Shown in pieces: positions 9,233-30,808 of a stretch of DNA of 35,579 nucleotides. Source of the DNA: Candidatus Latescibacterota bacterium. Its GTDB lineage: Bacteria; Latescibacterota; UBA2968. Each line of letters begins with the position of its first letter. The first letter of the stretch is position 1. The DNA is taken from contig JAYODI010000062.1 of the NCBI GenBank assembly GCA_038279365.1, positions 1 through 35,579 on the forward strand, in the 5' to 3' direction. Under the pieces are notes generated by a model. The model saw only the letters and a list, made by a program, of their open reading frames with translations. It ran no database searches and was not told the origin of the DNA. A program made the position numbers and the translations under genes.

Positions 9233-9236
9233 ATCT

Positions 9237-10580
9237 ATGCAAATTGATTGGAAAAAAGAAGGTGCAGAGGCCGTTCGACGTTTACAGGCCATGTTGCAAT
9301 ACGATACCACAAACCCACCCGGCAACGAGTTGGCCTTGGCCCACTTTTTGGCCGAAGAATTAAAGGCCGAGGGCATTGTTTCTGAGGTGTTGTGTTCTGC
9401 TGATCAACGGGGCAATTTGATGGTGCGTTTACAGGGTGATGGCAGTGAACGCCCAGTGTTGATGATGTCGCATTTGGATGTGGTGCCTGCCGAACCCCAA
9501 ATGTGGACACACCCACCCTTTGGAGGAGTGGTCGATGGTGGTTTTGTTTGGGGGCGGGGGGCTATCGATTCGAAGCTTACGGGGGCAGTGCAGATGCAGG
9601 TGTTGTTGATGTGTAAGCGCTTGGGGTTACCCCTTAAGCGCGATTTGGTATTGGTGGCCACTGCCGATGAAGAAAAAGGTGCGCATTATGGCATGGAATG
9701 GTTGGTCGATCAACATCGCGAATGGTTTGATGCCGAATATGGTTTGAATGAGGCAGGTGGATTTGCCCTGATGGTTGATGGCATACCGGTTTATACCTGT
9801 CAGGTGGCGGAAAAAGGGAGTGCCCCTTACGATGTGGTTGCCAATGGCAAACCTGGGCACAGTTCAGTACCGCACAACGACAATGCCATCGCGCATTTGG
9901 GGCAAGTGTTGTATCATTTGGGATCGGGGTTGATGCCCCATCGGGTGGTGCTGTGCGTAGAAGCCTTTTTTGAGTCGATGGCCAATCAGATGCCCAACCT
10001 CGATGTGGCTGACTTGTTGCGGGCGGTGTTGGTACCCGAAACCTCAGAAGCGGCCCTTGCGCGTTTGCCAGTTAATGAGGCAACGCGATTGATGTTTCAA
10101 GCAATGGTGCGCAACACCTGTGCGCCCACGGTGTTAGAGGCAGGTTTGAAGCGCAATGTGATTCCTTCCCAAGCACGTGCTCAGTTAAGTGGGCGTCCTT
10201 TGCCGGGTGTGGATGAAGCCACTTTTGCATCGGAAGTGAATGCGTTGATGGGGGGGGCTGGGCAATTGGATTTGACCGAACCCTTTCGTCAAGGAGTGGC
10301 TTTTGAACACAATACGCCGTTGTTTGATGCCATTGTAGATGCTATGCATCAGGCCGATGGCAACAGTGTGGTGGTGCCCTATATGCAAACAGGTGGCACG
10401 GATGCACGGTTTTTAAGTGATTTGGATATGCATGTCTACGGGTTTGTGCCTATGCGTTATGAGGCAGGTTTGGATTTTTTTGAATTGTGTCATGGGCACG
10501 ATGAACGTGTTTCCACAGACAATGTGACCTTTGCTGTTGAGGTATTATTTGATGTGGTTCGCAGGTTGAATTTGGCGTAA
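9237..10580 (+). CDS. M20/M25/M40 family metallopeptidase / deacylase (DapE/ArgE-like)
   Basis: SHLDVVPA, GRGAIDSK, ADEE, LNEAG, GHSS, GGTDAR, HGHDER motifs. Confidence 0.92.
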   Translation: MQIDWKKEGAEAVRRLQAMLQYDTTNPPGNELALAHFLAEELKAEGIVSEVLCSADQRGNLMVRLQGDGSERPVLMMSHLDVVPAEPQMWTHPPFGGVVDGGFVWGRGAIDSKLTGAVQMQVLLMCKRLGLPLKRDLVLVATADEEKGAHYGMEWLVDQHREWFDAEYGLNEAGGFALMVDGIPVYTCQVAEKGSAPYDVVANGKPGHSSVPHNDNAIAHLGQVLYHLGSGLMPHRVVLCVEAFFESMANQMPNLDVADLLRAVLVPETSEAALARLPVNEATRLMFQAMVRNTCAPTVLEAGLKRNVIPSQARAQLSGRPLPGVDEATFASEVNALMGGAGQLDLTEPFRQGVAFEHNTPLFDAIVDAMHQADGNSVVVPYMQTGGTDARFLSDLDMHVYGFVPMRYEAGLDFFELCHGHDERVSTDNVTFAVEVLFDVVRRLNLA

Positions 10581-10679
10581 TGGGCTTTTGGGCTGTTGTG
10601 GCAATTGACTTTTGGGTTGCGTCCAGATATATTGTGGCACAGTTGTGTTGGTAAGTGGTCAACCATAGGAGGGCTTATC

Positions 10680-11360
10680 ATGAGTGCGATTACCATTTCA
10701 AGGGAATATGGCAGTGGTGGGCGAACCATCGCTGCAAAGGTGGCAGATGCCCTCGGCTATGAACATATGGATAAAGATTTGTTGGTGGCCGTTGCTCAAG
10801 AAGCGCAGGTGCCAGTGTCTGAAGTGGAGCGATATGACGAACAACCAGAACATCCGGCATTGCGTATTTTGCGCAAATTTTTAACACCTGGCTATGCCGA
10901 TACATTAACGGGTTTGTCTGAATACGAATGGTGGGCAACGGCAACCGTTCCAGAGTTGTCTCACCAAAAAGACAAGGCTTTGGCAACCTTGGATGAAGAA
11001 GTATATGTGAAGTTGACTGCCGAAGTGGCCACGCGTATGACCGAACAAGATAAAGTGGTTCTTGTGGGGCGGGGTGGGCAAGCTGTGTTAAAAGGACGGA
11101 AAGACGTTTTACATGTGCGGGTGGTTGCTCCTACAGATTTTAAGATGGAAATCGTCAAAGAGCGCGATGGTTTGGATGGGGATGCCGCTGTAAAACGGAT
11201 GAAGCAAATGGATGAGCGCAGGCGTACCTATTTGCATCGCCATTATGATATTGATCTGACCGATAGTCGGTTGTATCACATCACAGTCAATACGGGCTTT
11301 TTGGGTATGGATGCCGCTGCCGATTTGGTGGTCAAAGCAGCAAAGCGCATCGGGTTATAA
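10680..11360 (+). CDS. Cytidylate kinase-like family protein
   Basis: ITISREYGSGGRTIA P-loop variant, VVLVGRGG, LHVRVVAP, YHITVNT; AGGAGG RBS before ATG 10680. Confidence 0.88.
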   Translation: MSAITISREYGSGGRTIAAKVADALGYEHMDKDLLVAVAQEAQVPVSEVERYDEQPEHPALRILRKFLTPGYADTLTGLSEYEWWATATVPELSHQKDKALATLDEEVYVKLTAEVATRMTEQDKVVLVGRGGQAVLKGRKDVLHVRVVAPTDFKMEIVKERDGLDGDAAVKRMKQMDERRRTYLHRHYDIDLTDSRLYHITVNTGFLGMDAAADLVVKAAKRIGL

Positions 11361-17865: not shown

Positions 17866-17959
17866 AATGTGAGGGGCACCACCCTTGCATTGTCGTTACT
17901 GATTGTTAACATCATCTAAAACCGATGGTTGGAGAGCCTACGGTTTTGTGAGTGAGGTT

Positions 17960-18994
17960 ATGAAACTTTACATGTGGATGTTTTTGGGGTTGTTGATGCC
18001 TCAAGTGGCTTGGGGTGCAACGGCCAACATCACCAAGGTGGAATCCAAGCGGGTGGTTATCGACATTGGATCTGCGCGTGGTGTCATTGTGGGCATGAAG
18101 GCCGATGTGCTCACCAGTGCTGGGCAAATCGTTCACCCTGTAACGGGTGAAGATTATGGCAATCGCCGGGTCAAAATAGGTGAAATAGAGATTCAATCTG
18201 TCAATGTTGAGTCTGCGGTCGGGCGCATTGTAGCGGCATATGGTCCTATCAGCGTGGGCGATATTGCCGATGGTTTGGTGGTCATTCCATCCGAGCAAGA
18301 GCGTATGCAGATGGATATTGACGAAGCGCGCTCAGAAATCAAGTCTTTGGCCCGCAGTTTGGCCGATGAAATCAAAGGCAACCAAAAGGCCATTGATGGC
18401 CTACGCCGCGATTTGCAACGCGTGGGCAGCTCTGAACAGCGTTTGCGGCAAGTGATGAATGCCGTACAAAACATGCGAGAACGCATGGTGGTTTTTGAAA
18501 ACCGCATAGCGACTATGGAACAACAACAAAAGGTGATGATCGCCCAAGATTCATCGGAAGTGTCAGTTAAAGATCAAGTGTTGGAAATGGAACAAAGAAT
18601 CAAGGTTATTGAGACACAGCAAAAAGAATTAGAAGCGATGTCTATGAAGATGGCGACCATGCCAGATTCCATGCAGGGAAAATCTGCAATGCAACAAGGT
18701 GTGCAGGCATCTGCCGAAAGTGATAATTTGGATGCTTTGTTTCCTGAAGAAGAGGTGCCTGAAACACCTTGGTATTTGGCTTGGTGGTTTTTGGCCATCA
18801 TTTTTGCAGTTATTGGTTTGGCCGTTGGGGCGGCGATTTTGATGCTCAAGAAAAAGAAAACACAAGGCGCAACAGGTGAATCGGTAGGAGGGGTGATGGA
18901 CGAATCTGGATTTGAAGAAGTGGAAACAGATGATTTGATGGACGATTTGCCTGATGATTTGCCCGAACTTGAAACCGCGGATGACGAAACCTGA
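17960..18994 (+). CDS. Hypothetical type-I membrane protein: signal peptide, FlgT_C-like beta domain, long coiled coil, TM helix, acidic tail
   Basis: GAGGT RBS before ATG 17960; VVIDIGSARGVIVG...HPVTGE...IGEIEI; heptad-like E/Q/R/K region; WYLAWWFLAIIFAVIGLAVGAAILML followed by KKKK. Confidence 0.8.
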   Translation: MKLYMWMFLGLLMPQVAWGATANITKVESKRVVIDIGSARGVIVGMKADVLTSAGQIVHPVTGEDYGNRRVKIGEIEIQSVNVESAVGRIVAAYGPISVGDIADGLVVIPSEQERMQMDIDEARSEIKSLARSLADEIKGNQKAIDGLRRDLQRVGSSEQRLRQVMNAVQNMRERMVVFENRIATMEQQQKVMIAQDSSEVSVKDQVLEMEQRIKVIETQQKELEAMSMKMATMPDSMQGKSAMQQGVQASAESDNLDALFPEEEVPETPWYLAWWFLAIIFAVIGLAVGAAILMLKKKKTQGATGESVGGVMDESGFEEVETDDLMDDLPDDLPELETADDET

Positions 18995-19008
18995 ACGGAG
19001 TGATGACC

Positions 19009-20448
19009 ATGCGTTTGTTATATGGATTGATTTGTTTGTGCTTTGCGCTGGCACCTGCTTTTGCTCAGGATACAGGCTATGTGTTGCAGGTGGCTGGGCG
19101 GTTGGTTTTTGTTGATAAGGGCGAACAAGACAATATGCGCCCTGGTGATTTTTTACAAATTATTCGTCAAGAAATCATCAAACACCCCGAAACGGGTGAA
19201 AACTTGGCGGGTGAAGTGGCATTGGGTGTGGTGCGTATTGTTGAGGTCTTCCCTCGTTTGTCAACGGCTGAAGTGGTTGATTTGATGAGAGGGATGGATT
19301 TTGACATGTTAGACAAAGAAGCTCGGCAGGGTTTGATTCGCATTCGTGTGCTTCCGCCTGAAGCAGAAATGATGATATTAGAACGTGTAAAGGCACGTGA
19401 AAGTGGCTTAATGGCTGCCCCAGATCGGTTGAACCCCGATGGGGTTTTACGTCAATTTGTACCTGAAATACGCGTGGGAATAGGGAGTCGGCAAGATGCG
19501 GTTTGGCCAGCCTTTACCTATCAACTGATAGACCAATCTACTATTGGTTCCCGTGTGGGGAAAACGAATTTGGCCCAACCCGATAGTGCATTTGATGGGG
19601 TATTGGATACGGTTTTATTAACATTGGCCGATACCACCAGCACACCACAAGAATTGGAACCATTTGGTGGATCTTTAGAAACACAGATCAATGTGATATA
19701 TCCTTATTCAGAGCGCATAACCTTGTTGGCTGATTTTGGGTTTGGCAATGTTTCAAGGCTCAATATTGGGGCCAAATTTTATTCGTGGAATCTGATTAAG
19801 TTTTTGGGGAGTGGATATACGCCCGACGGACAAGTGGGTACGCCCGTGTTTACATTCAAATTGGGAAAAGCGGGCAAGGGGCCAAGCAAGTTGTCTTCTG
19901 CTGGGTTGGAACAGTTGCAGGTAAAAGCAACCGTTCGGGGCGATTCGATTTATGCTGTAACGGCATTGGATACGGTTTTTACCACAGAATATGTGAATTT
20001 GAGCCAAGCTTTAATTACTCATGTTGATACCCTTTTTAGGGGTAATGTGAGGGATATGTTGCGTGATGTGGCCAACGAAGGCGTCAAATCGCGCAACAAG
20101 AGTGGTTTAGGTTTTTCTTTGGGGATCACTTGGCCCATTACGCGTCATTTTACATTGCATGGCGATTGGACACGGATGGGAAATATTAAGGAATATGGTG
20201 GGAAGCTAACTTATTATATGCGATCTGTTGAAAAAACAGATCCAAGGGTTAACCCCGATGGGCGTATTCGTTCTTTGATCCTGTCGCTAGGTGGGCGATA
20301 TGATACTGGGTCAAAACAAAGTGTTTTAGATTTTGATCTTGTGTTTCCCGTTTTACAACGTTTTACCTTTTCTAGTGTTGTGACCACAGATTTTAATAAA
20401 TTTACCCGTGTGGGACTGGCGTTTAAAACCTATTTAAAAGGATTTTAA
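19009..20448 (+). CDS. Hypothetical exported protein: FlgT_C-like domain plus probable outer-membrane beta-strand region
   Basis: Signal peptide ending AFA-Q; VFVDKG...HPETGE...LGVVRIVEV; amphipathic strands; terminal Phe. Start could be 19000, 19003 or 19009. Confidence 0.75.
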   Translation: MRLLYGLICLCFALAPAFAQDTGYVLQVAGRLVFVDKGEQDNMRPGDFLQIIRQEIIKHPETGENLAGEVALGVVRIVEVFPRLSTAEVVDLMRGMDFDMLDKEARQGLIRIRVLPPEAEMMILERVKARESGLMAAPDRLNPDGVLRQFVPEIRVGIGSRQDAVWPAFTYQLIDQSTIGSRVGKTNLAQPDSAFDGVLDTVLLTLADTTSTPQELEPFGGSLETQINVIYPYSERITLLADFGFGNVSRLNIGAKFYSWNLIKFLGSGYTPDGQVGTPVFTFKLGKAGKGPSKLSSAGLEQLQVKATVRGDSIYAVTALDTVFTTEYVNLSQALITHVDTLFRGNVRDMLRDVANEGVKSRNKSGLGFSLGITWPITRHFTLHGDWTRMGNIKEYGGKLTYYMRSVEKTDPRVNPDGRIRSLILSLGGRYDTGSKQSVLDFDLVFPVLQRFTFSSVVTTDFNKFTRVGLAFKTYLKGF

Positions 20449-20517: not shown

Positions 20518-20640
20518 TTTGCTGTGACCAATCGGATCAAATCTTATAAGAAAAGATAAACTGGAGAGAACAGTGAGGAAATGTGACAGTCATTTTCTAC
20601 TCTTTCCATTTTGTTTTTTCATTATCTCAGGGGAATTGTT

Positions 20641-22440
20641 ATGCAACGTGGTATTGCGGTGTTGGATTTTGGGGGCCAATATTCTCACCTTATTGCAAAT
20701 CGAATACGCCGATTGAATGTGTATTCTGAAATTTTTGCACCCCATGTGGATCTCTCAGAAATAGAAGGTGCTTGTGGCGTGATTTTTTCGGGAGGCCCTT
20801 CCAGTGTTTACGACCCAAACCAACCTGCATTTAATCCTGCATTAATTGAGTCGGGGCTGCCTACGTTGGGGTTGTGTTATGGACATCAATTGATTTGTAA
20901 ACATTTGGGTGGAGAGGTGGTGGCGGGTGATGTGCGAGAATTTGGCAGCGCCACTTTGGAAATTGTGCCTCATACGGAACTTTTTACCGGATTGAGTGAC
21001 AAAGAAGAAGTATGGATGAGCCATGGAGATGTGGTGGCTCAATTGCCCAAAGGGTTTCGTTCATTGGGCAAAACAGATGATTGTCCTACTGCAGCTGTGG
21101 GAGATGATCAACGCCATATTTATGGTGTGCAATTCCATCCAGAGGTGGCACATACACCCAATGGGATGGTGATGTTGGATAATTTTTTGAATCTATGCCA
21201 GGCTCCTCGTACATGGACAATGGCCAATTATGCCGAAGGGGCAATGGATGCCATTCGACAACAAGTGGGTGATCGCAATGTGTTTTTGTTGGTGTCGGGA
21301 GGGGTGGATTCGAGTGTGGCTTTTGTGCTGTTTAATCAGGCCTTGGGGGCAGAGCGTGTTTTGGGGTTGCACATAGACAATGGATTTATGCGCAAAGCTG
21401 AAACTGCAACGGTAGAAGCATTTTTGAACCGCGAAGGATTTCACAATTTGCAGGTGGAAGATGCCAGCGATGATTTTTTGTTGAGTGTGGAAGGCATGGT
21501 TGAACCTGAGATGAAACGTGCGGCCATTGGCAAAACATTTTTAGATGTAAAGGATAAGGTTTTGGCACGATTGAATCTTGATCCTGACCATTGGTTGCTG
21601 GGGCAAGGAACGCTTTATCCTGACACAATTGAATCGGGTGGCACGGAACATGCAGCATTGATTAAAACACACCACAATCGCATTGATCTTATTGAAGAGC
21701 TCATTGCTCAAGGTAAGGTGATTGAGCCATTGGCTCAACTTTATAAAGACGAGGTGCGTGATTTGGGCACCGAGTTGGGGTTGCCTCACAATTTGGTGTG
21801 GCGGCATCCTTTTCCTGGGCCGGGGTTGGCGGTGCGATGTTTGTGTTCTGATGGTGTGGTTTTGGATGAAGATTTGGGGCCTGCCCAAGAAAAGGCTTCA
21901 CAACTTGCAGAAAATATGGGATTGCAGTTGCGCATTTTGCCCGTTAAGAGTGTGGGCGTTCAGGGTGATTATCGCACCTATGCACACCCGGCTGTGGTGT
22001 GGGGGCAAGCCAATTGGGATATCTTAGAGGATGTGTCTACGCGCATTACCAATTCGATTCGAGAAATAAACCGCGTGTTGTATCTCATTACGCCAGATAC
22101 TTTGCCCGAGTTGAATTTGAAACGCGCTTTTTTAACCCGTTCGCGTTTGGATTTGTTGCGTGAGGCAGATGCCATTGCGATGAAGGCTTTGTTGGATGCC
22201 GGTTTGATGGCTGATGTGTCTCAAATGCCCACGGTGTTGCTGCCTTTAAGTACAGATGGGCAAACTGAATCGGTGGTTTTGCGCCCTATTACCACGCCAG
22301 ACTTTATGACGGCACGTTTTTCCGAATTGCCATTTGAACTTGTGGCCCAAATGGGTCGCGATATTCTGGCGTTGGGTGGTATCAATGCTGTTTTTTACGA
22401 TGTGACCCACAAACCGCCAGGGACTGTGGAATGGGAGTAA
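20641..22440 (+). CDS. guaA: GMP synthase (glutamine-hydrolysing), long form
   Basis: LDFGGQY, SGGPSSV, LGLCYG, WMSHGD, QFHPE, SGGVDS, QGTLYPDTIES, IKTHHN, RHPFPGPGL, KPPGTVEWE. Confidence 0.97.
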   Translation: MQRGIAVLDFGGQYSHLIANRIRRLNVYSEIFAPHVDLSEIEGACGVIFSGGPSSVYDPNQPAFNPALIESGLPTLGLCYGHQLICKHLGGEVVAGDVREFGSATLEIVPHTELFTGLSDKEEVWMSHGDVVAQLPKGFRSLGKTDDCPTAAVGDDQRHIYGVQFHPEVAHTPNGMVMLDNFLNLCQAPRTWTMANYAEGAMDAIRQQVGDRNVFLLVSGGVDSSVAFVLFNQALGAERVLGLHIDNGFMRKAETATVEAFLNREGFHNLQVEDASDDFLLSVEGMVEPEMKRAAIGKTFLDVKDKVLARLNLDPDHWLLGQGTLYPDTIESGGTEHAALIKTHHNRIDLIEELIAQGKVIEPLAQLYKDEVRDLGTELGLPHNLVWRHPFPGPGLAVRCLCSDGVVLDEDLGPAQEKASQLAENMGLQLRILPVKSVGVQGDYRTYAHPAVVWGQANWDILEDVSTRITNSIREINRVLYLITPDTLPELNLKRAFLTRSRLDLLREADAIAMKALLDAGLMADVSQMPTVLLPLSTDGQTESVVLRPITTPDFMTARFSELPFELVAQMGRDILALGGINAVFYDVTHKPPGTVEWE

Positions 22441-22444
22441 ATAC

Positions 22445-24736
22445 GTGAGTGTTGTATCTCATATTGCTTCTGTGGTTTTTGTGATGGTGTTGCCCATGCA
22501 TATTTGGGCGGCCTCTGCACTGGTATTTACGCCTGTCTCAATTCAATTTGATTCGGTGGGTGTTGGGCAGCAAGACAGTACTGTTTTGACCATAAAGAAT
22601 ACGGGGCGTGAACGCCTGTCGGTTTTGGGGGGTAAATTGGCCCTAAAAGATGCGTCGGCGTTTTCGGTCAAGATAGACACACTACAGTTAAACGTTGGAG
22701 ACAGTGTGCAGGTCATCGTGCGTTTTGAGCCCATAGCGGGTGGTGAACAAGCCGATGTGTTGACAGTTGAGGCACGTGCATTGTCTCAGGCATCTGTAGA
22801 GCGATTTCTTGTTCAATTGGCAGGTAAAGCAGTGGGGGCAGAAATTGATGTGTCGCCATCTGTTTTGTCATTTGCCAGTTCTGGGCTGGGTGTATCGGTT
22901 ACACAAAATATATCGGTTAAAAACTGGGGAAACGACTCATTACGCGTTGCACGCATCTTTGCACAAGATGTCAGATTTGTTGTGGATGCCAACACGTTTG
23001 TGGTTGGCCCCAATAAAGAGCGCGTTGTTAAAGTGACCTATACACCCGATAGCATTCAAGCCCAACATGATACGCTGTGCATTGTCAGCAATGATTTTGA
23101 TGAAGATACGCTCAAGGTTGTATTAGATGCACAGGCCACACCACAGCAAGTGGGGGTTGCGCGTGTGTCACTTGCAAAAAATGGTGCCACATTTCCTCAA
23201 GTCGGAGATACGGTTTCGGTGGCCATGACGTTGGTACCCAATGGTGCCAGTATTGCAGGTGTGGAGCTGTTTTTTGGGTATGATCCCGTTTATTTTACCG
23301 TTGCAAATGCAGGTGCACCCTTTGTGCTTACTGGATATTCAGAAAGCCAGTTAAAAGTGTTGTCCAATGCAATTGTATCACAAACCAATGCACTTGTAGT
23401 GACCCATCTTTCGGGTTTGGGGGCGGCTTCTGACTCTATTACGACAAATGGTCTTTTGACACAGATTGATCTTATTGTAAAAGCCCCTTTGATAGAAGCA
23501 ACGCGCTTACGGGTGTTGGTTGAATCTCCTTTGTTCAATTCACAATTTATAACGCCTTCTGGCTTGGCTTTTACCATGCCTGGTTCCAATTCGGTGGGCT
23601 TGGGCAACACCCCCCCCACTTTGCGCCCGTTTCCGCCTTTAAAGATGTCTGAAGATGTGGCTGCCACATTGGGGCTGCGTTCTTTGGCCTCCGATGCTGA
23701 ATCGGGTCCAAATGAGTTGCAATGGTCTTTTCATGATCCCGACAGTTTGATTTTGGTTTCTATTTCAACCCCAGATACGGCATTGGGTTATATTGCTCGT
23801 TTTTTCCCTCCCGAAAATTTATCGGGTACTTTTACGGTTATGGCCAAGGTTTCAGATCCTGCAGGTGCCGCAGACAGTTCTGTGTTGGTTGTTGATGTAA
23901 CGGCTGTAAATGATCAGCCCAGCATACCCGCTGAGATTCGGCCAGGCAACGAGGCAACGGGGGTGTCTTCTCCGGTTACTTTGCAATGGCGTGCGAGTGA
24001 CCCCGATGTTGAAGACGTGCTTGTTTATGATGTTTCCTTTGGATTAAACGAACTTTTTCTCGAGTTGGTGGCAGAAGGTATTTCGGACAGCGCTTATACC
24101 ATCGAAACCAATTTGCTTGTTGATACCAATTATTATTGGCAAGTGGTTGCCCGTGATCTGGCAGGAGAAGAACGTTCGGGTCCAATATGGACGTTTACGA
24201 CAGAGTCTGATTTGGTGGCGCCTATTTTTTTAGGTGGCCCAGAAATTGTCGAGGTTTCCGATTCGACGGCATCGGTTTTTTGGTCTGTAGACGAGCCTGT
24301 TTCTGCGCGCATCGTATTGGGTGTCAGTGCCAATCTTTCAGATTCGTTGGCTTTTGACCCGGTGGTGGTAGACGCACAGTCTCGGTTGCGGACACAAGAA
24401 ATTGATGGTTTGACACCTGGTACGCAGTATTATCTTCAAATTACTTTAAGAGATGCAGCAGGAAACCCATTGGTAAGTGATATTTTAGGTGTGATGACCA
24501 CAGGTGAAAATGTGGTTGTTCCCGTTATTAGGGATATGGGTGATTTTACGGGTGATCGATTGGTGAACTTTGAAGACTTTGTGATATTTGCCGCTGTTTT
24601 TAATCGGCCAATTGGTAGTATTGAATATATACCCAATGCAGATTTTAACAGCAATGGTGTGATCAATTTTGAAGATTTTGTCGTGTTCGCAGGTGTTTTT
24701 GGAAACAATTATGCCACGGGAAAACCCACAAACTGA
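22445..24736 (+). CDS. Secreted modular protein: 2x ASH-like Ig, cohesin-like, cadherin-like Ig, 2x FN3-like, C-terminal dockerin-like
   Basis: IKNTG / VKNWG Ig repeats; VGDTVSVAM...IAGVELFFGYDP; NTPP..SED..VNDQP; YYWQVVARD; GLTPGTQYY; DFTGDRLVNFEDF / DFNSNGVINFEDF. Confidence 0.8.
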   Translation: MSVVSHIASVVFVMVLPMHIWAASALVFTPVSIQFDSVGVGQQDSTVLTIKNTGRERLSVLGGKLALKDASAFSVKIDTLQLNVGDSVQVIVRFEPIAGGEQADVLTVEARALSQASVERFLVQLAGKAVGAEIDVSPSVLSFASSGLGVSVTQNISVKNWGNDSLRVARIFAQDVRFVVDANTFVVGPNKERVVKVTYTPDSIQAQHDTLCIVSNDFDEDTLKVVLDAQATPQQVGVARVSLAKNGATFPQVGDTVSVAMTLVPNGASIAGVELFFGYDPVYFTVANAGAPFVLTGYSESQLKVLSNAIVSQTNALVVTHLSGLGAASDSITTNGLLTQIDLIVKAPLIEATRLRVLVESPLFNSQFITPSGLAFTMPGSNSVGLGNTPPTLRPFPPLKMSEDVAATLGLRSLASDAESGPNELQWSFHDPDSLILVSISTPDTALGYIARFFPPENLSGTFTVMAKVSDPAGAADSSVLVVDVTAVNDQPSIPAEIRPGNEATGVSSPVTLQWRASDPDVEDVLVYDVSFGLNELFLELVAEGISDSAYTIETNLLVDTNYYWQVVARDLAGEERSGPIWTFTTESDLVAPIFLGGPEIVEVSDSTASVFWSVDEPVSARIVLGVSANLSDSLAFDPVVVDAQSRLRTQEIDGLTPGTQYYLQITLRDAAGNPLVSDILGVMTTGENVVVPVIRDMGDFTGDRLVNFEDFVIFAAVFNRPIGSIEYIPNADFNSNGVINFEDFVVFAGVFGNNYATGKPTN

Positions 24737-24749
24737 TGTGGTCTGTCTT

Positions 24750-27700
24750 ATGAAGAAAAAAAATTATATATGGCACTGTCTCATTGGGCTGATGTTGATG
24801 ATGCCTTCATCGGCTATGGGGCAGATCGATACCACAAATGTGTGGTTTTCAAATGGGCCCACTGGGTTGTTAATTGTACCTGCTGTTGTGATCAATCCAA
24901 CCTTTCCCGATACGATTTATGCGGGTTCTTTGGGGGGCACGGTTTCACGCAGTGTGAACCGAGGCAGTTCATGGACGACAGTAGGGGCCAGTATTGCCGA
25001 TTCTATTTTGGCCCTGGCCATTGCAAGAAGCAATACGGCAGTGATTTATGCCGGAACGCTCAGTCGTGGGGTTTATAAATCAACTGATCATGGTGTAACG
25101 TGGGCGGCCACAGGATTAACTGGGGTGCAGGTTTCAGCAATTGCCATAGACCCCAATGATATGAACAAAGTTTATGCAGGAACACGCGATAGTTTGGTGA
25201 AATCTTCTAATGGTGGAACCAGTTGGGCCAAGGCCAACTTAGACAGTGTGAACGTAAGGGCCATCGCCATGGATCCACTTATGCCCGATACTGTTTATGT
25301 GGGAACCACAGGACGTGGGCTTTATCGGTCTTTTAACGATGGAACAACTTGGGCAAGTGTGAACACGGGGTTGCCAACCAATAATGTTTCTGAAATAAAT
25401 GTGCATCCAACACAATCCGATACCTTGTATCTGGCGACTACGAGTGGGGTTTTTAAAAGCACAAACGGTGGCAATTCATGGCAATCGGCAAACAATGGCA
25501 TCACGGCGCTGGATATGATCAGTTTGCAAATTGCACCCAGTGAAACCAATGTGATTTATGCCGGTTCTTCAACTGGTCAAGTATTTAAGTCTACCGACCA
25601 CGCAGGAATTTGGTCTGATATTTCGCGAAACTTAAATTATGGCATTCCCGTTTCGGCAATTGCAATAGCACCAGACAGCTCCAATGTGGTGTATGTGGGT
25701 ACTGGGCCATTGACCAATTTGGGGGTGCAGCGTTTAAAACAAACCGGATTGGGAGGGATCACAACCATTACCACAGGACTTGCACCCGAAATGGTTGCAA
25801 CGGGTGATCTGAATCGTGATGGTGTGACCGATTTGGTGGTTGCAAATGGTGGGGAAAATGACCTGTCTGTATTTTTGACGAGTTCTTTGGGGTCGATATT
25901 AACGCGCAGAGATTTTATTGTGGGCAGTGGACCCGTGATGGTTCGGGTGGGTGATTTGGATGGGGATCGAGATTTGGATTTGGTGGCCGCCAACCATATC
26001 AAGCGCACCGTGTCGGTATTGCTCAATGACAGCACTGGGGTATTTGGTTCGCCCAGAGAGTTATTTGTGGGGGCACCCGTGCGTGTTTTGGCCTTGGCAG
26101 ACTTTGACCGCGATGGGGATGTCGATATTGCGGTGGCAGAAGGCAATTCAGGTACCATATTGATTTATCGCAACGATGGTGCGGCCAGTTTTGAGGCCCC
26201 AGAAACGATTTCTACCATCAATGGCATTTCCGATTTAATTGCTGTTGATTTGAATGGAGATGGCATTCCTGATCTGGCGGCGATTAGTCAGGCTCAAAAC
26301 CGATTGGTGTTGCTTACAAATTCGGGCAATGCAACATTTCAAACTTATTTGGGAAATTCATTTGGTTTGCGCCCCGCACATCTTGTTTCTGGAGACTTTG
26401 ATATAGATGGAGATGTGGATTTGGCTTTGTCAAATGCCAACAATCAAGTATCTGTGTTTATGAATAACAATGGGTTTCAAGCCACCGTGCCAATTCATTA
26501 TGGTTTGCCCGATACTGCTTCTGGGCTTGTGGTGGCCGATGTCGATTTGGATCGTTATCCAGATTTGGTTGTGCCTACGAGAAATGGGCGTGTTGCGGCT
26601 TTGGTGAATGATGGCAATGGGGCTTTTTTGACCACGTTGAGCTTTGGTAATATTTCATCGGTAGGGCGTGTTGCTGTTGCCGATTTGAACTCCGATAGCC
26701 AGTTGGATATCTTGGTGTCCAATCCTTCTAACAATGCTTTAACCATTTTTTCCAATACGGTTGCAACATCCATTAAAGCTCCTGCGCCCCCTATTGGGGT
26801 TGGTGCCACAGATGCACAAGGTGATTTGGGTGGCAACACACGGCTTACCTGGAAACGGCCACGTATAGATGAAGGCACAGGACGCGCAGTTGCCTATCGC
26901 ATTATGCGGGCATTAAGCCGAACGGGTACCTATTCACAAATTGCCCGTGTTGATACATCGGCAACAAAAGGGATTGACAGCACGTTTGTGTTTCGCAGTT
27001 ATGTCGATAGCAATGCAACGGTGGGTGTTCCCTATTACTATTATTTGCGCAGTGAAAGCAGTGGTGGGTCGCTATCTGCCTCATCTGATACGGTAACGGC
27101 CACCAGCAAAGCACAACCGTTTTTTGATTTTTCTTTTTCGGACAACAGCCCCTATCATGTGCGTGATACCATTAAGGCGACCATTCGTTTAAATGCTATT
27201 GGGCATGATGTTCAGAGTTTTTCGTTGTTTTTGGGGGTTGATACCACAGCCATAACGCTTTTGGATCAGGACAGCGCGGTTGCAGGATTACAACCTATTG
27301 CCGTAGATACTGGGTTGGCGCAGGCCCGTGTGTTGCAAAATCGAATGGATCCATTGGATCGCAGGAAGATGGATTTTGGGCTGGGTTTTTTGCCGACCTT
27401 AAGTGATTCGACACCTGTGGCTGTTGGTTCATTTCGCATGATTGCAAAAAAAGACACCACCACATTGATTCAGATTTTAAATGACACGTCGGCAGCCCGT
27501 CAGTCGGTTTTAACAAGCCGCAGCGATGGCAGTTTGATTCGGCCATTTGTTTTGCCATCTTCAAAGCTCATTTTTAAAAATCACCGTTTGCGCGGAACGA
27601 TTGCTCTGCAAGGGATGCCAGCAGATGATCGAGACATTGATGTACGCTTGGATTTAACACAAAATACGGCTTTGGGTACCCCCTTAACCACGCCATACAA

Positions 27701-28793
27701 CTCACCCAATGACGCCGATTTGAAAAAGGCAGGTATACAGATTACGTTAAGCAAAACAGGCACATTTGAATTGTTACAAGTGCCGGTGGGCAGATATACC
27801 ATGTTTGCCAAGCCTTTTCATTATTTGAGAGGGCGTGTGTTAAGAGACAGTATTGTGGTTACCAATGCCGCTGGGGTTTCACCCGTGACGTTTAAATGGA
27901 TTTCTGTAGACAGCTCTAAAAACTTGACCGAGTTACGCGCCGGTGATGGCAACAATGACAACCGAATCGACTTGGCCGATTTTGGTTTGCTGGCGGCGCA
28001 CTTTGGTGCATCGGGGTTTGCTGTTGGGTCACTTGCTTGGGGCGCAGATTTTAACAGTGACGGCGTGGTCAATTTGGCCGATTTTGCCTTGTTGCAATCT
28101 AATTTTGGCGAATTGGGCATGGGCAGAACCATTACCACCAAACCTGTTGTGGTGGCCTCGCGGGTGCGTGTGCATGAAGGACGGGTGCAGATTGACAATG
28201 CGGTTGATGTTTCTGGTGTATCGATGGACATTGTGGCTGGTGAGGACTGGGTTTTGGATGCGGTCATGGCGGGTGATTTTTGGGGTGACACCAAACCGAT
28301 GGTTTTATTGCGTCAAATGGGGGATAAGCCACACTATCGTGTGGCAGTTGTATTGGGGAAGGGAACAGTTTCTGGAGCTGGCGATGTATTCGTGTTGCCT
28401 CAATTACCGAGTGATGTGCGTATTGAACGGGTGCGTATTTTAACGGGAGATGGGATTGAAGCTTGGGGTGATGGAGCCGAATTGCCATCTTATGTGTTGG
28501 CTGATGATTTGCCCAAACATCCTGATTTGTCTCAAAATTTCCCCAATCCCTTTAACCCCGACACGGTGATCCCTTTTGCTGTGAGTGAATCTACACAGGT
28601 GATGTTAACGGTTTATTCCTCTTTGGGACAAGTGGTGCGCTCATTGGTCCACGATGTCATTGAGCCAGGATATCATCAGTTGGTGTGGGATGGCAGAGAT
28701 GAGGCGGGCAAATTGGTGAGTTCTGGCGTTTATTTGATTCGATTTCAGCATGGTGACTTTGTAACAGTTCGCAAAGCATTGTTGTTAAAATGA
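24750..28793 (+). CDS. Large secreted modular protein: BNR/Asp-box propeller, FG-GAP/VCBS propeller, FN3-like, cohesin-like, dockerin-like, FlgD-Ig/T9SS-type C-terminal domain
   Basis: S-x-(D/N)-x-G-x-(T/S)-W repeats; (G/A)DLNxDGxxDL repeats; DGNNDNRIDLADF / DFNSDGVVNLADF; LSQNFPNPFNP...WDGRDEAG..VSSGVY...RKALLLK; ATG 24750 gives a signal peptide (ORF track starts at 24669). Confidence 0.85.
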   Translation: MKKKNYIWHCLIGLMLMMPSSAMGQIDTTNVWFSNGPTGLLIVPAVVINPTFPDTIYAGSLGGTVSRSVNRGSSWTTVGASIADSILALAIARSNTAVIYAGTLSRGVYKSTDHGVTWAATGLTGVQVSAIAIDPNDMNKVYAGTRDSLVKSSNGGTSWAKANLDSVNVRAIAMDPLMPDTVYVGTTGRGLYRSFNDGTTWASVNTGLPTNNVSEINVHPTQSDTLYLATTSGVFKSTNGGNSWQSANNGITALDMISLQIAPSETNVIYAGSSTGQVFKSTDHAGIWSDISRNLNYGIPVSAIAIAPDSSNVVYVGTGPLTNLGVQRLKQTGLGGITTITTGLAPEMVATGDLNRDGVTDLVVANGGENDLSVFLTSSLGSILTRRDFIVGSGPVMVRVGDLDGDRDLDLVAANHIKRTVSVLLNDSTGVFGSPRELFVGAPVRVLALADFDRDGDVDIAVAEGNSGTILIYRNDGAASFEAPETISTINGISDLIAVDLNGDGIPDLAAISQAQNRLVLLTNSGNATFQTYLGNSFGLRPAHLVSGDFDIDGDVDLALSNANNQVSVFMNNNGFQATVPIHYGLPDTASGLVVADVDLDRYPDLVVPTRNGRVAALVNDGNGAFLTTLSFGNISSVGRVAVADLNSDSQLDILVSNPSNNALTIFSNTVATSIKAPAPPIGVGATDAQGDLGGNTRLTWKRPRIDEGTGRAVAYRIMRALSRTGTYSQIARVDTSATKGIDSTFVFRSYVDSNATVGVPYYYYLRSESSGGSLSASSDTVTATSKAQPFFDFSFSDNSPYHVRDTIKATIRLNAIGHDVQSFSLFLGVDTTAITLLDQDSAVAGLQPIAVDTGLAQARVLQNRMDPLDRRKMDFGLGFLPTLSDSTPVAVGSFRMIAKKDTTTLIQILNDTSAARQSVLTSRSDGSLIRPFVLPSSKLIFKNHRLRGTIALQGMPADDRDIDVRLDLTQNTALGTPLTTPYNSPNDADLKKAGIQITLSKTGTFELLQVPVGRYTMFAKPFHYLRGRVLRDSIVVTNAAGVSPVTFKWISVDSSKNLTELRAGDGNNDNRIDLADFGLLAAHFGASGFAVGSLAWGADFNSDGVVNLADFALLQSNFGELGMGRTITTKPVVVASRVRVHEGRVQIDNAVDVSGVSMDIVAGEDWVLDAVMAGDFWGDTKPMVLLRQMGDKPHYRVAVVLGKGTVSGAGDVFVLPQLPSDVRIERVRILTGDGIEAWGDGAELPSYVLADDLPKHPDLSQNFPNPFNPDTVIPFAVSESTQVMLTVYSSLGQVVRSLVHDVIEPGYHQLVWDGRDEAGKLVSSGVYLIRFQHGDFVTVRKALLLK

Positions 28794-28835
28794 TGAATAA
28801 ATCTTATAAAGCGTGCGCAGAATGAAGGTGATTTT

Positions 28836-30080
28836 ATGATGCGTCTGTTGGTGTGGTGTGTGGTGATTGTGGTGGTGGGCACGCCTGTTGAGGCTGTGAC
28901 ATTGCGCGTTGAAACAGTTGGGGGAGATTCGACTTTTTTTGCTCCCGAAGGTGATACGGTGTCGGTGGCCCTAAGGGTTGATTCTGAAGATCAGGTGCTT
29001 ACGGGCGTTGAAGTTTTTTTGCAATATGACCCTCGGTTTTTTGCCGTGGCAGATACCATTCGGGCATCGCAGTTATTTGGCACTGTGTTGATTGATACCA
29101 CACGCGCGTTGTCAGACAGTGTTGCGGTTGTCCATTTTGCAGATGCAGACCTTGTCGGAAAAGCGGTAACGGGTTCATTGTTTGTCGTCGACTTTGTCAT
29201 ATTAAAAAATGTCCCCTTGCATGCGACTCTTAAATTGTTACAAGACAATATCACTTATCGCAGTGCGTATACCACTGCTTCGGATGTGGGCAATACGGTT
29301 GCGTTTGAACATATCGTACCGCTTTTGTTTGACGATTTGCCTCCTGAATTGCATTTGCCCCCGTTGTTGGTGATGAAAGAAGACGATGTGCGCGTTGTTG
29401 ATTTGCAAGCATTGGCCATTGATCGTGAATCGGGCAATCGGTTGGTTTGGTCTGTGGTTTCATCCAGTGAACGGGTGTTTACGCAAGTGACCGATTCGTT
29501 AACTGTTGTATTGACTCCACAAAAAGATTTTAGTGGCCAAGTGATCCTTGAGGTGATGGTGACGGATGGAAATGGCGGGCAAGCCAATGGATCGGTTGTG
29601 CTCAATGTGGCATCTGTCAATGACTTGCCAGAATGGATTGCAGGGGCTTTGCCTGATTCGGTGGTGCTTAATGGACGCAGCGCAGTTGTTGATTTGGGCA
29701 GAGCCGTTAAAGATGTGGATGGAGATGTTTTGGTTTGGTCTGGGCAGGGAACTGGAGACGTTGGATTAGATATCCAAGGTGCAATGGCTCAGATTTTTGC
29801 ACCTGTGGATTGGGTGGGAGCAGAAACCATTTCTATATCGGTGAGTGATGGTATTGGCGATGAGGTTCCCGTTTCGCTTTTGGTGGTGCGTCGTCAGCCA
29901 TTAAGTGCTTTGCTGGGTGATTTGAATGGAGATGCAGAAGTAAATTTCACGGATTTTATTGTCTTTGCTCAAGCTTTTGGGCAGGCAAACGCAACATCTG
30001 GTGCCGATCTCAATGGTGATGGGCGTGTAGATTTTCCAGATTTTTTGATTTTTGCTCAAAACTTTGGGCGCAAACTTTAA
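28836..30080 (+). CDS. Secreted modular protein: cohesin-like, 2x cadherin-like Ig, C-terminal dockerin-like
   Basis: Signal peptide ending VEA; EGDTVSVALRV...LTGVEVFLQYDP; KEDD..TPQKDFSG..VTDG..VNDLP; DLNGDAEVNFTDF / DLNGDGRVDFPDF. Confidence 0.8.
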   Translation: MMRLLVWCVVIVVVGTPVEAVTLRVETVGGDSTFFAPEGDTVSVALRVDSEDQVLTGVEVFLQYDPRFFAVADTIRASQLFGTVLIDTTRALSDSVAVVHFADADLVGKAVTGSLFVVDFVILKNVPLHATLKLLQDNITYRSAYTTASDVGNTVAFEHIVPLLFDDLPPELHLPPLLVMKEDDVRVVDLQALAIDRESGNRLVWSVVSSSERVFTQVTDSLTVVLTPQKDFSGQVILEVMVTDGNGGQANGSVVLNVASVNDLPEWIAGALPDSVVLNGRSAVVDLGRAVKDVDGDVLVWSGQGTGDVGLDIQGAMAQIFAPVDWVGAETISISVSDGIGDEVPVSLLVVRRQPLSALLGDLNGDAEVNFTDFIVFAQAFGQANATSGADLNGDGRVDFPDFLIFAQNFGRKL

Positions 30081-30095
30081 GTCTTTTTTAAACAC

Positions 30096-30130
30096 AAAAT
30101 CCCCTGACAAAAATGTCAGGGGATTTTTTT
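30096..30130. terminator. Bidirectional intrinsic terminator
   Basis: AAAATCCCCTGACA-AAAA-TGTCAGGGGATTTT(TTT) between convergent genes. Confidence 0.9.
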
Positions 30131-30148
30131 ATACATTCTGTATTATTT

Positions 30149-30808
30149 TTATTCAACAACCTCAAAGGGTGTTGATTCAAATGGGGCAGATACCATTCGA
30201 CCGCGTGCAACAAGGTGGTGACGCACCAAAAGATAAAGACCAATGCAAGCCAAGAAAAGCAACGCACAAATGATGAGCAATCGTGCAGGCAACAAGGCAC
30301 TGCCTAAAAAGGCAAAGAGAAAGTATCGGGGCCAACGGCCTAAAAAAACAGCGGCCATGTATCGGCGCAAAGGGTAATCGCTGGTGGGGCTGAGAACCCG
30401 AAAGATATAAAAGGGAATAAACGGGGCAAATGCAGCGATCAGCACGCATACAAAAGGTGCTTTTAAAAAGTAGTGCACAGCACCTTGATACATGTCTGTA
30501 TTTTGTATTTTTTGTAGGGATTTATGCTGAAATGCATATCGAATGGCTTTGTAGTCAATAAAACAGGCGATCACATTGCCACACGCTGCAACGGTAGCAG
30601 CCAAAAGGGGCGCATAAAGTGCGCCCATCACCACCATGACCGGTTCGTAGGGCATGGGGATGACGTTGTTGGATGCGATGGTAAAAAGAAACAATAAGGC
30701 CAGATTGCGGTATTCGGGAACCAAACCCGCAACAAGAATTGCGGTTAGGATGAATGGCCCTGCAAAAAGAGCAAAACGTCGCCAAGTATATGAAGAATTT
30801 ATGGACAT
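30149..30808 (-). CDS. DedA/VTT (YqaA-like) family membrane protein
   Basis: IPMPYEPVM, AACGNVIACFIDY, PFIPFYIFR, FLGRWPRY; multiple TM segments. Confidence 0.75.
   Translation of the reverse strand: MSINSSYTWRRFALFAGPFILTAILVAGLVPEYRNLALLFLFTIASNNVIPMPYEPVMVVMGALYAPLLAATVAACGNVIACFIDYKAIRYAFQHKSLQKIQNTDMYQGAVHYFLKAPFVCVLIAAFAPFIPFYIFRVLSPTSDYPLRRYMAAVFLGRWPRYFLFAFLGSALLPARLLIICALLFLACIGLYLLVRHHLVARGRMVSAPFESTPFEVVE

Follow-up and report, generated by a model that had tools for sequence, protein, structure and literature searches.

The window analysed here is a 35,579-nucleotide stretch of contig JAYODI010000062.1 (assembly GCA_038279365.1) from a Candidatus Latescibacterota bacterium. It contains an operon of three genes, located at 22445-30080 on the plus strand, the products of which, here named P1, P2 and P3, each combine cohesin-like and dockerin modules. 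The pairing of cohesins and dockerins is the 'plug and socket' of cellulosomes and one of the strongest protein-protein contacts, but nearly all understanding of it comes, to our knowledge, from Gram-positive fibre degraders. Our results support the view that the modules of the operon are of the true cohesin and dockerin types, and not generic immunoglobulin (Ig) or carbohydrate-binding module (CBM) look-alikes. We predict, with about even confidence, that this conserved operon specifies a non-catalytic cell-surface assembly, built through cohesins and dockerins on a hub protein, P2, that would be anchored through a type IX secretion system (T9SS).

Organisation of the operon

The genes for P1 (22445-24736; 763 amino acids, aa), P2 (24750-28793; 1347 aa from its ATG) and P3 (28836-30080; 414 aa) lie on the plus strand directly behind guaA. 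As described in the first-pass annotation of this DNA, they are co-oriented and closely spaced and end at one strong terminator. The gaps amount to 4 nt between guaA and P1, 13 nt between P1 and P2 (with the P2 start at ATG 24750) and 42 nt between P2 and P3, and the spacing of only 4 nt makes co-transcription with guaA likely. P1 starts with a GTG that is preceded by GGGAG 8 nt upstream, and P3 with an ATG that has AAGGTGA upstream. The start of P2 had to be chosen among alternatives, since a further ATG is located at 24711 and the open reading frame (ORF) listing opens the frame at TTG 24669. The database copy of P2 (P0043) has 1360 aa, which by length matches the ATG at 24711. We took ATG 24750 as the start, because the resulting N-terminus, MKKKNYIWHCLIGLMLMMPSSAMG, resembles a signal peptide and because the orthologue alignment begins there. 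Judged by eye, the N-termini of all three proteins are Sec-signal-peptide-like, in agreement with the earlier view that all three are secreted. In the orthologue alignment of the P3 family, the A-V junction that follows VEA does not vary. P3 was also considered as a lipoprotein, but this was ruled out by eye, as its Cys8 has no lipobox and is not kept in all orthologues.

The intrinsic terminator of the operon consists of a hairpin at 30096-30127 (plus strand) followed by a T-run, the whole element extending to 30130. The hairpin begins 16 bases past the P3 stop, between P3 and a convergent gene of the VTT/DedA type (30149-30808, minus strand) that was recognised by domain scan, and the terminator is common to these two genes. 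With a folding energy of -21.8 kcal/mol and a z-score of -6.77, the hairpin was not equalled in stability by any of 200 shuffled sequences. A consensus terminator scan overlooked this hairpin, which is the strongest of the region.

The dockerin modules

A duplicated Ca-binding loop in each of the three genes had been noticed in the first-pass annotation, and this is borne out by a search of the window with a degenerate DNA pattern that encodes D-x-N-x-D-x-x-[VI]-[DN]-x-x-D-F. Six matches were obtained, two per operon gene, where 0.02 would be expected by chance. The corresponding modules are Doc1 at the C-terminus of P1 (24539-24712, loops at 24542 and 24641), Doc2 in the interior of P2 (27939-28112, loops at 27945 and 28047, both with 0 mismatches to the pattern) and Doc3 at the C-terminus of P3 (29913-30068, loops at 29919 and 30006), all encoded on the plus strand. 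From one loop start to the next there are 33 residues in Doc1, 34 in Doc2 and 29 in Doc3. As in dockerins with two F-hands, the Ca ligands are found at loop positions 1, 3, 5, 9 and 12, with only one deviation in the six loops, as the first loop of Doc1 has a Thr at position 3. Doc3 forms two helices in its AlphaFold2 (AF2) model.

Two of the three modules are recognised by the Pfam family Dockerin_1 (PF00404; gathering cut-off 22.9 bits). The scores for the full protein and for the isolated module are 26.2 and 33.7 bits for Doc2 and 28.7 and 34.6 bits for Doc3; Doc3 also narrowly passes the NCBIfam model NF041540 (dockerin_GC; 29.5 against a cut-off of 29). At the level of families, Dockerin_1 was matched in 6 of 11 P1 members (E≤0.01, best 2.9e-6) and in all 9 P3 members. 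Searches against solved structures were consistent with this, the P1-family profile matching the dockerin 2y3n_B with an E-value of 2.9e-10 and the X-dockerin 2b59_B with 4.5e-7, and the P3-family profile matching 2y3n_B with 7e-12. The three dockerin families align with one another in hhalign with probabilities of 97-99%, Doc1 and Doc3 being the closest pair, and the Ca-loop residues are invariant across the orthologues of all three proteins.

The cohesin-like modules

Each protein also carries a cohesin-like module upstream of its dockerin: Coh1 in P1 (23159-23626), Coh2a in P2 (27081-27605; aa 778-952) and Coh3 in P3 (28896-29330), all on the plus strand. The beta-domain motif by which these modules had been noticed in the first place occurs exactly three times in the six frames of the window (23204, 27162 and 28950) and in none of 300 residue shuffles. 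Since the motif was itself read from these sequences, the shuffle test is circular, and the assignment of each module is based on other evidence. For Coh3, this is the Pfam family Cohesin (PF00963; gathering cut-off 24.1 bits), which the isolated module matches with 26.2 bits; the match was unreported in full-length scans. The same family was found at E≤0.01 in 4 of 9 members of the P3 family (best 1e-6) and in 3 of 11 members of the P1 family (best 1.8e-7), and the P1-family profile reached a solved cohesin only at an E-value of 0.051 (5g5d_A).

For Coh2a, the assignment follows from the predicted fold. Its AF2 model, built from 27 sequences, has a pLDDT of 91.5 and a pTM of 0.85. In a Foldseek search of the PDB with this model, all 38 matches listed down to rank 49 were cohesins, and the first non-cohesin appeared at rank 50. 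The best match was the cohesin of the Clostridium perfringens GH33 protein, 2vo8 (E 1.3e-6, TM-score 0.82 by target length), and the matched structures span type I, type II (2b59_A, 5m0y_A) and the non-cellulosomal cohesins of C. perfringens. TM-scores by target length ranged from 0.47 to 0.82, except for a value of 0.37 for the 335-residue cohesin dyad 3l8q_C. The model of Coh2a thus superposes on solved cohesins as a cohesin jelly-roll. A generic Ig or CBM fold, which had been named beforehand as part of the outcome that would overturn the proposal, was not what this search returned, as the Coh2a model matches cohesins only, down to rank 49 of the list. Going by its modelled fold, Coh2a is a cohesin subtype that goes undetected by Pfam.

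Coh1 is connected to the other two by profile and sequence comparisons. Using slices of the orthologue alignments, hhalign paired Coh1 with Coh3 at a probability of 98.3% over 146 columns, Coh1 with Coh2a at 95.7% over 102 columns, and Coh2a with Coh3 at 93.8% over only 40 columns. In BLASTP comparisons, Coh1 and Coh3 are 27% identical with an E-value of 2e-10, and Coh1 matches Coh2a with an E-value of 0.004. Judged from such sequence relationships, Coh1 and Coh3 on the one hand and Doc1 and Doc3 on the other would form one type, and the modules of P2 would belong to others.

Relatives of Coh2a are scarce, as a single-sequence search among 1.84 billion proteins returned only 23 representative clusters at E≤1e-3. 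Six of the 23 were scanned for domains, and three of these (P0166, P0168 and P0179) have a context of the P2 type with FG-GAP repeats and a dockerin, whereas P0183 has FN3 domains together with a sub-threshold dockerin and cohesin, and P0169 has a weak CarboxypepD_reg match only. P0176, which matched in seven stretches and was considered as a tandem array of Coh2a, is actually a protein of Ig_7 repeats that matches only the linker before Coh2a.

Support from the Cohesin HMM is thus borderline or absent in the copies present in the window, and this would fit a different explanation of the operon. P1, P2 and P3 could be independent secreted adhesins or binding proteins that do not assemble with each other, their cohesin folds serving as structural spacers, such as a stalk ahead of the T9SS tail, and their dockerin folds serving as Ca-stabilised ends or binding something other than a cohesin. 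Against this explanation speak the fact that every solved member of the two folds that was matched is a partner-binding module, and the co-transcription of the three genes.

The C-terminal region of P2

P2 differs from P1 and P3 in that it does not end with its dockerin. The last part of the protein is a T9SS type A C-terminal sorting domain (28539-28790, plus strand), which scores above the cut-offs of TIGR04183 (25.5 versus 23) and of PF13860 FlgD_ig (34.7 versus 27), and below that of PF18962 (17.5 versus 27). Among the three proteins, only P2 has such a sorting domain above cut-off. The diderm nature of the host, which had been assumed in the first-pass annotation, is supported by this tail; no genes for the T9SS machinery are present within the window.

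Between Doc2 and the sorting domain lies a segment, Coh2b (28113-28535, plus strand), that we regard as a divergent second cohesin-like module of P2 on the basis of profiles of cohesins adjacent to T9SS C-terminal domains (CTDs). It was also tried as a relative of Coh1, Coh2a or Coh3, and this was ruled out by hhalign probabilities of less than 1%. The Doc-X-CTD region of P2 can be aligned over about 315 aa, with about 30% identity, with proteins encoded at three of the comparison loci described below (L005, L044 and L001). At the position equivalent to Coh2b, the L005 and L044 proteins match Pfam Cohesin with 50.1 and 47.9 bits, and a P2-family HMM of the Coh2b segment matches the L044 cohesin with an E-value of 3.7e-8. 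When compared with a 24-sequence profile of CTD-adjacent cohesins, Coh2b aligned over 101 columns with an hhalign probability of 94.5%, and the values for Coh1, Coh3 and Coh2a against this profile were 89%, 82% and 71%. A profile of Coh2b plus three locus cohesins, which is dominated by the locus sequences, matches the solved cohesin 3l8q_A with an E-value of 8.4e-7 and also matches 2xdh and the NagJ modules. A look-up of Coh2b in the ESM Atlas gave unnamed clusters and one cluster in which 14% of the members have Cohesin (score 0.90), which is a weak lead.

Because of this link between Coh2b and the CTD-adjacent cohesins, our count for the operon is four cohesin-like modules and three dockerins. 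P2, with its second cohesin-like module and its T9SS tail, is thus an exception to the proposal that every subunit contains a single cohesin and a single dockerin. With two cohesin-like modules and a T9SS anchor, P2 is likely to be a hub and not one of several equal subunits.

Other modules of P1, P2 and P3

The remaining modules are of the Ig, FN3, cadherin-like and propeller kinds, as had been stated before. In P1, the signal-peptide-like N-terminus is followed by two Ig domains of the ASH/choice-of-anchor-D kind (22520-23104; PF15780 with 1.2e-18, and NF012200 with 64.7 bits versus a cut-off of 45), Coh1, a tandem-95/cadherin-like domain and two FN3 domains (together 23648-24514) and Doc1. 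The tandem-95/cadherin-like domain is matched by NF012211 at aa 402-495, and the FN3 pair by fn3 with 25.3 versus 25, the family profile leading to titin FN3. The N-terminal half of P2 consists of two predicted propellers with approximate bounds, a BNR/Sortilin-Vps10-like beta-propeller (24846-25703; PF15902 with 7.6e-18) and a propeller of FG-GAP/VCBS repeats (25776-26768; PF13517 with 3.3e-41 in 7 stretches, and PF01839 with 5.7e-20). An FN3-like stretch was also recognised by eye in P2. Between Coh2a and Doc2 there is a tentative beta-sandwich (27606-27929), which hhalign found to be unrelated to cohesins apart from the overlap of the slices; P0168 and P0169 have weak CarboxypepD_reg matches at this place. 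In P3, the order is signal-peptide-like N-terminus, Coh3, two cadherin/Ig-like domains and Doc3. The two middle domains, one cadherin-like/Big_9 and the second Ig-like (29370-29891; PF17892 with 1.3e-10 and PF17963 with 3.3e-9), were modelled with AF2 at a pLDDT of mostly about 76-90, with one 10-residue block at 69, and the Foldseek list for the whole of P3 is dominated by cadherin and titin arrays. All of these modules are encoded on the plus strand.

No catalytic domain was found above cut-off in P1, P2 or P3 in scans with Pfam and NCBIfam, which agrees with the earlier failure to notice a catalytic carbohydrate-active enzyme (CAZyme) domain. The nearest match to an enzyme was that of NF045728, a 'F510_1955 family glycosylhydrolase', on the first P2 propeller, with 106 bits versus a cut-off of 175. 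What would mark a cellulosome is likewise not seen in the three proteins, which have neither a glycoside hydrolase, carbohydrate esterase, polysaccharide lyase or CBM family above cut-off nor a tandem cohesin array, and the earlier designation of the operon as non-cellulosomal is a fair one, as it has no recognisable CAZyme. No surface-layer (S-layer) family was matched in P1, P2 or P3 either. The kinds of heads present, namely propellers, cadherins and Ig domains, hint at a role in ligand binding or adhesion and not in catalysis.

Conservation of the operon

Orthologues of P1, P2 and P3 retain both types of module down to 33-48% identity. For P1, the alignment comprises 10 orthologues with 33-82% identity, and the search returned 12 relatives at 34-100% identity, one of which covers 68% of the query; a 13th match covers only 25%. 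For P3, the further orthologues number 8, with identities of 48-82%, the search having given 9 further full-length relatives at 48-100%. Relatives of P2 over its full length number more than 25, with identities as low as 35%. A few of the relatives are named Candidatus Latescibacteria (P0034, P0048 and P0070), and more distant ones Gemmatimonadetes or 'bacterium'; it is from such names that the trio was placed, probably, in Latescibacteria. The retention of both module types, with Ca-loop residues that do not vary, argues against independent proteins that have spacers and stabilised ends.

Relatives of the three proteins also appear to occur together. Relatives of P1, P2 and P3 have two longest-contig values of the database in common, namely 56921 (P0032, P0044 and P0004) and 416635 (P0040, P0046 and P0006). 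Three further values, 34309, 22564 and 21165, are common to relatives of P1 and P2, and one, 14915, to relatives of P2 and P3. These matching values suggest a conserved linkage of the genes. No orthologue of the operon was detected by tblastn in the 79 loci that were fetched by dockerin similarity. In three distant P2 paralogues of 1617-1752 aa (P0070, P0072 and P0074), an ASH Ig pair of the P1 type is placed between the BNR/Sortilin and FG-GAP propellers, a weak hint at the sequence level that the parts of P1 and P2 may work together. Of these paralogues, P0070 is named Latescibacteria and P0072 Gemmatimonadota.

Dockerin and cohesin proteins outside the operon

The window encodes a fourth dockerin protein (5488-6807, plus strand; 439 aa), in which a signal-peptide-like start is followed by an AhpC/TSA-like CxxC domain, a pair of ASH Ig domains and, at the C-terminus, a dockerin (about 6643-6795) that matches Dockerin_1 with 23.1 versus 22.9 bits. 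The AhpC-TSA match, a weak thioredoxin-fold match, scores 21.3, under the cut-off of 26. A domain of the redox type is an unusual cargo for a dockerin protein, and on sequence grounds this protein is a possible further partner of the operon.

For comparison, we examined 79 loci that were gathered via dockerin motifs, a sample that is biased toward dockerin proteins. They come mostly from Latescibacterota, Gemmatimonadota, Pirellulaceae and Caldisericota. With our own HMMs, 125 ORFs in these loci had a match to any of the modules; 94 of them had a dockerin only, 19 had any cohesin match, three had a dockerin, a cohesin and a T9SS tail, six a cohesin and a dockerin, and five a dockerin and a T9SS tail. 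The three with the complete dockerin-cohesin-T9SS cassette are the proteins that resemble the end of P2 (L001, about 8309-10912; L005, 8174-10897; L044, 9347-10975) and belong to metagenome-assembled genomes (MAGs) of Latescibacterota and Gemmatimonadetes. Their heads consist of NHL/SBBP propeller repeats or a beta-helix, or are short, and the proteins are otherwise unrelated. A cohesin directly before a T9SS tail recurs on many unrelated large proteins. All six cohesin-dockerin ORFs (~1060-1150 aa) are found in Caldisericota/Cryosericum loci (L043, L053, L059, L062, L064 and L072). In L053, L059, L062 and L072 the cohesin-dockerin ORF is directly followed by a single-cohesin ORF of ~1016 aa; L064 has a cohesin-only ORF of this size in the same locus, and L043 has none. 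By sequence, the Caldisericota pair is another conserved pair of cohesin-plus-dockerin genes outside cellulosomes. Within the limits of this biased sample, these counts mean that polypeptides combining a cohesin with a dockerin are not rare in the sampled phyla. Four of the loci (L006, L008, L015 and L017, from Latescibacterota and Gemmatimonadaceae MAGs) encode WD40-repeat proteins of 1307-1792 aa with a T9SS-type tail, and L035 encodes a 942-aa WD40 protein with a dockerin at its end and no T9SS-type tail.

The excess of dockerin-only ORFs over ORFs with any cohesin match can be read in two ways. It is in line with independent proteins that make no use of each other's modules, with the proviso that the sample was picked by dockerin similarity, and the recurrence of a cohesin before the sorting domain of unrelated cargo has a spacer-like appearance that fits the same explanation. 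The other possibility is that the operon, instead of being a closed unit that assembles with itself, provides a platform within a genome-wide display system that resembles a cellulosome. P2 would then be an anchoring scaffoldin, P1 and P3 would be adaptors of the ScaC type, and their partners would be dockerin-bearing hydrolases or other secreted proteins encoded elsewhere. The many dockerin-only ORFs, the cohesins directly before T9SS tails on many unrelated large proteins and the dockerin protein with a different head that is encoded 16 kb away in the window would all fit such a system, as would the larger number of sockets than plugs in the operon (four against three). A T9SS-tailed cohesin scaffoldin with dockerin enzymes was moreover inferred for Cloacimonadota in the relevant part of PMC8542988, and Latescibacteria are said to have cellulosome-affiliated enzymes in a passage of PMC7081726 that cites Farag 2017. 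Nevertheless, no dockerin-bearing enzyme was found within the window, and the presence of both module types in all three proteins is needless for a plain scaffold with cargo. We regard such a genome-wide display platform as rather unlikely.

The predicted surface assembly

The reading that we prefer is the T9SS-anchored, non-catalytic assembly around P2. P2 would leave the cell through the type IX system and be held at the outer membrane, presenting there its BNR/Sortilin-like and FG-GAP propellers as heads for ligand binding, along with its two cohesins and its dockerin. P1, with its stalk of Ig, cadherin and FN3 domains, and P3, with its cadherin stalk, would dock on P2 and on each other through Ca-dependent cohesin-dockerin contacts, and further dockerin proteins, such as the product of 5488-6807, may also attach. 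Given four sockets and at least three plugs, we would expect a branched complex for adhesion or display, and not a strict head-to-tail polymer. Nor would the partners have to be encoded in the operon itself, in view of the fourth dockerin protein in the window and the frequent module combinations in the sampled phyla.

Several observations weigh against this reading. The Pfam check that had been proposed for the modules was passed by Doc2, Doc3 and the isolated Coh3, but not by the others. Doc1 reaches only 14.5 bits on Dockerin_1 in the full protein and 19.7 bits as an isolated module, and Coh1 stays under the Cohesin cut-off both within the full protein (23.3 bits) and in isolation (20.4 bits); Coh2a has no Pfam match even at E≤10 in the isolated-module scan, and the 140 residues of Coh2b have none. 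Single-sequence searches of the PDB with Coh1, Coh2a and Coh3 returned nothing significant, the best match being 7urp_A with an E-value of 0.16 for Coh3. The cohesin part of the whole-P3 AF2 model has a pLDDT of about 50-70 and was for this reason not used. The cohesin-dockerin contacts within the operon are themselves predictions from sequence, and the four sockets and three plugs are not balanced. A complex prediction for one of the 12 operon pairs, without controls, namely Coh2a (P2 aa 778-952) with Doc3 (P3 aa 352-414) and two Ca ions, gave ipSAE values of 0.03 and 0.02, under the mark of 0.32, and speaks neither for nor against binding. The P2 family also looks broader than the other two, as its full-length relatives go down to 36% identity and include Gemmatimonadetes entries, whereas the searches for P1 and P3 gave only 12 and 9 further full-length relatives. 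This implies either that the P2 modules have other partners or bind each other in some genomes, or that the word-based search missed relatives. Lastly, and as the chief weakness next to the predicted nature of the binding, P1 and P3 have neither a T9SS tail nor another recognisable signal for export across the outer membrane and might therefore stop in the periplasm of a diderm. The want of an evident route across the outer membrane would also suit proteins that act independently; all in all, we consider three independent adhesins or binding proteins to be unlikely.

A bolder version of the hub model starts from the cassette that P2 has in common with the L001, L005 and L044 proteins. The dockerin, cohesin and T9SS tail of this cassette could form a self-complementary clip, by which neighbouring T9SS-anchored proteins would join laterally into a polymeric lattice on the surface that depends on Ca, and P1 and P3, which have Sec signals only, might be loaded on the hub before or during export. 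We judge this version to be quite improbable. If true, it would mean that diderm candidate phyla have a cohesin-dockerin envelope layer and that proteins can hitch-hike through the type IX system.

Genes upstream of the operon

The guaA gene (GMP synthase; 20611-22440, plus strand) was identified by the Pfam families GATase (9.4e-41), NAD_synthase and GMP_synt_C (7.8e-27). It is listed at 609 aa, which is longer than usual for a GMP synthase, and GMP_synt_C was matched in two stretches. This suggests that guaA carries an insertion, or that the start at TTG 20611 is over-long, an in-frame Met being located 10 codons downstream. Just upstream of guaA there are two genes on the plus strand in which no Pfam family was matched. 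In the product of the first (17903-18994), the N-terminus contains a hydrophobic segment; there are also a long stretch that resembles a coiled coil, a second membrane segment and a tail that is very acidic. That of the second (19000-20448; 482 aa) has a signal-peptide-like start and a C-terminus ending in ...YLKGF, as is often the case for outer-membrane beta-barrels. A link of these two genes to the operon is possible.

Relation to known systems and significance

The design principle of the operon is not new, as both polypeptides with a single cohesin and a single dockerin and the formation of multimers through self-recognition have been published for Ruminococcus (PMC4081043, PMC4611034). 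Ruminococcus flavefaciens has 5-11 secreted proteins per strain with a single cohesin and a single dockerin, which are proposed in PMC4081043 to act as bridges between components. These ScaC-type adaptors resemble the operon proteins in having one cohesin and one dockerin on a secreted polypeptide. Their setting is the cellulosome of a monoderm fibre degrader, with sortase anchoring and many dockerin enzymes, whereas the operon belongs to a probable T9SS host, has propeller, cadherin and Ig heads and no linked enzyme, and holds all three genes together. In the amylosome of Ruminococcus bromii, the cohesin of Amy4 was measured to bind the protein's own dockerin, from which multimers were predicted, and the authors cite earlier cases (PMC4611034). 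Amy4 likewise has both modules on one protein and follows the mechanism that the first-pass annotation had proposed for the operon. In contrast to the operon proteins, which are non-catalytic and for which binding is predicted only, it is a GH13 amylase of a Firmicute with measured binding.

T9SS-anchored cohesin scaffolds are also already in print. For Candidatus Stygibacter (Cloacimonadota), a cohesin scaffold with a T9SS-type C-terminal domain, along with signal-peptide proteins that have C-terminal dockerins, was inferred in silico (PMC8542988). This system shares with the operon a diderm host from a candidate phylum and a T9SS-tailed cohesin protein. As described in that source, the scaffold has tandem cohesins and CBMs, and its partners are GH18, GH57 and peptidases; the operon proteins have one or two cohesins plus a dockerin each, with no CBM or enzyme, and both systems have been described in silico.

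Cohesin and dockerin folds outside cellulose degradation are further found in Archaeoglobus fulgidus and in Clostridium perfringens glycosidases, the hosts and domain contexts of which differ from those of the operon. Proteins of A. fulgidus carry both cohesin and dockerin modules, and a survey of non-cellulosomal cohesin and dockerin modules was reportedly made by Peer et al. in 2009. Our literature search found no paper that joins Latescibacteria (or WS3) with dockerins and cohesins. Four features are new here, namely the occurrence in a single conserved operon of three non-catalytic proteins with both cohesin and dockerin, the cassette of dockerin, cohesin and T9SS tail, the cohesin subtype missed by Pfam, and the heads of the propeller and cadherin kinds.

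If the predicted binding is true, the window would provide four new cohesins and four dockerins, possibly with orthogonal specificity, for use in protein engineering, and it would raise the question of how partners that have no T9SS tail reach the surface. For the biology of these bacteria, the operon points to a cohesin-dockerin clip that may serve general surface architecture or adhesion rather than the display of enzymes.

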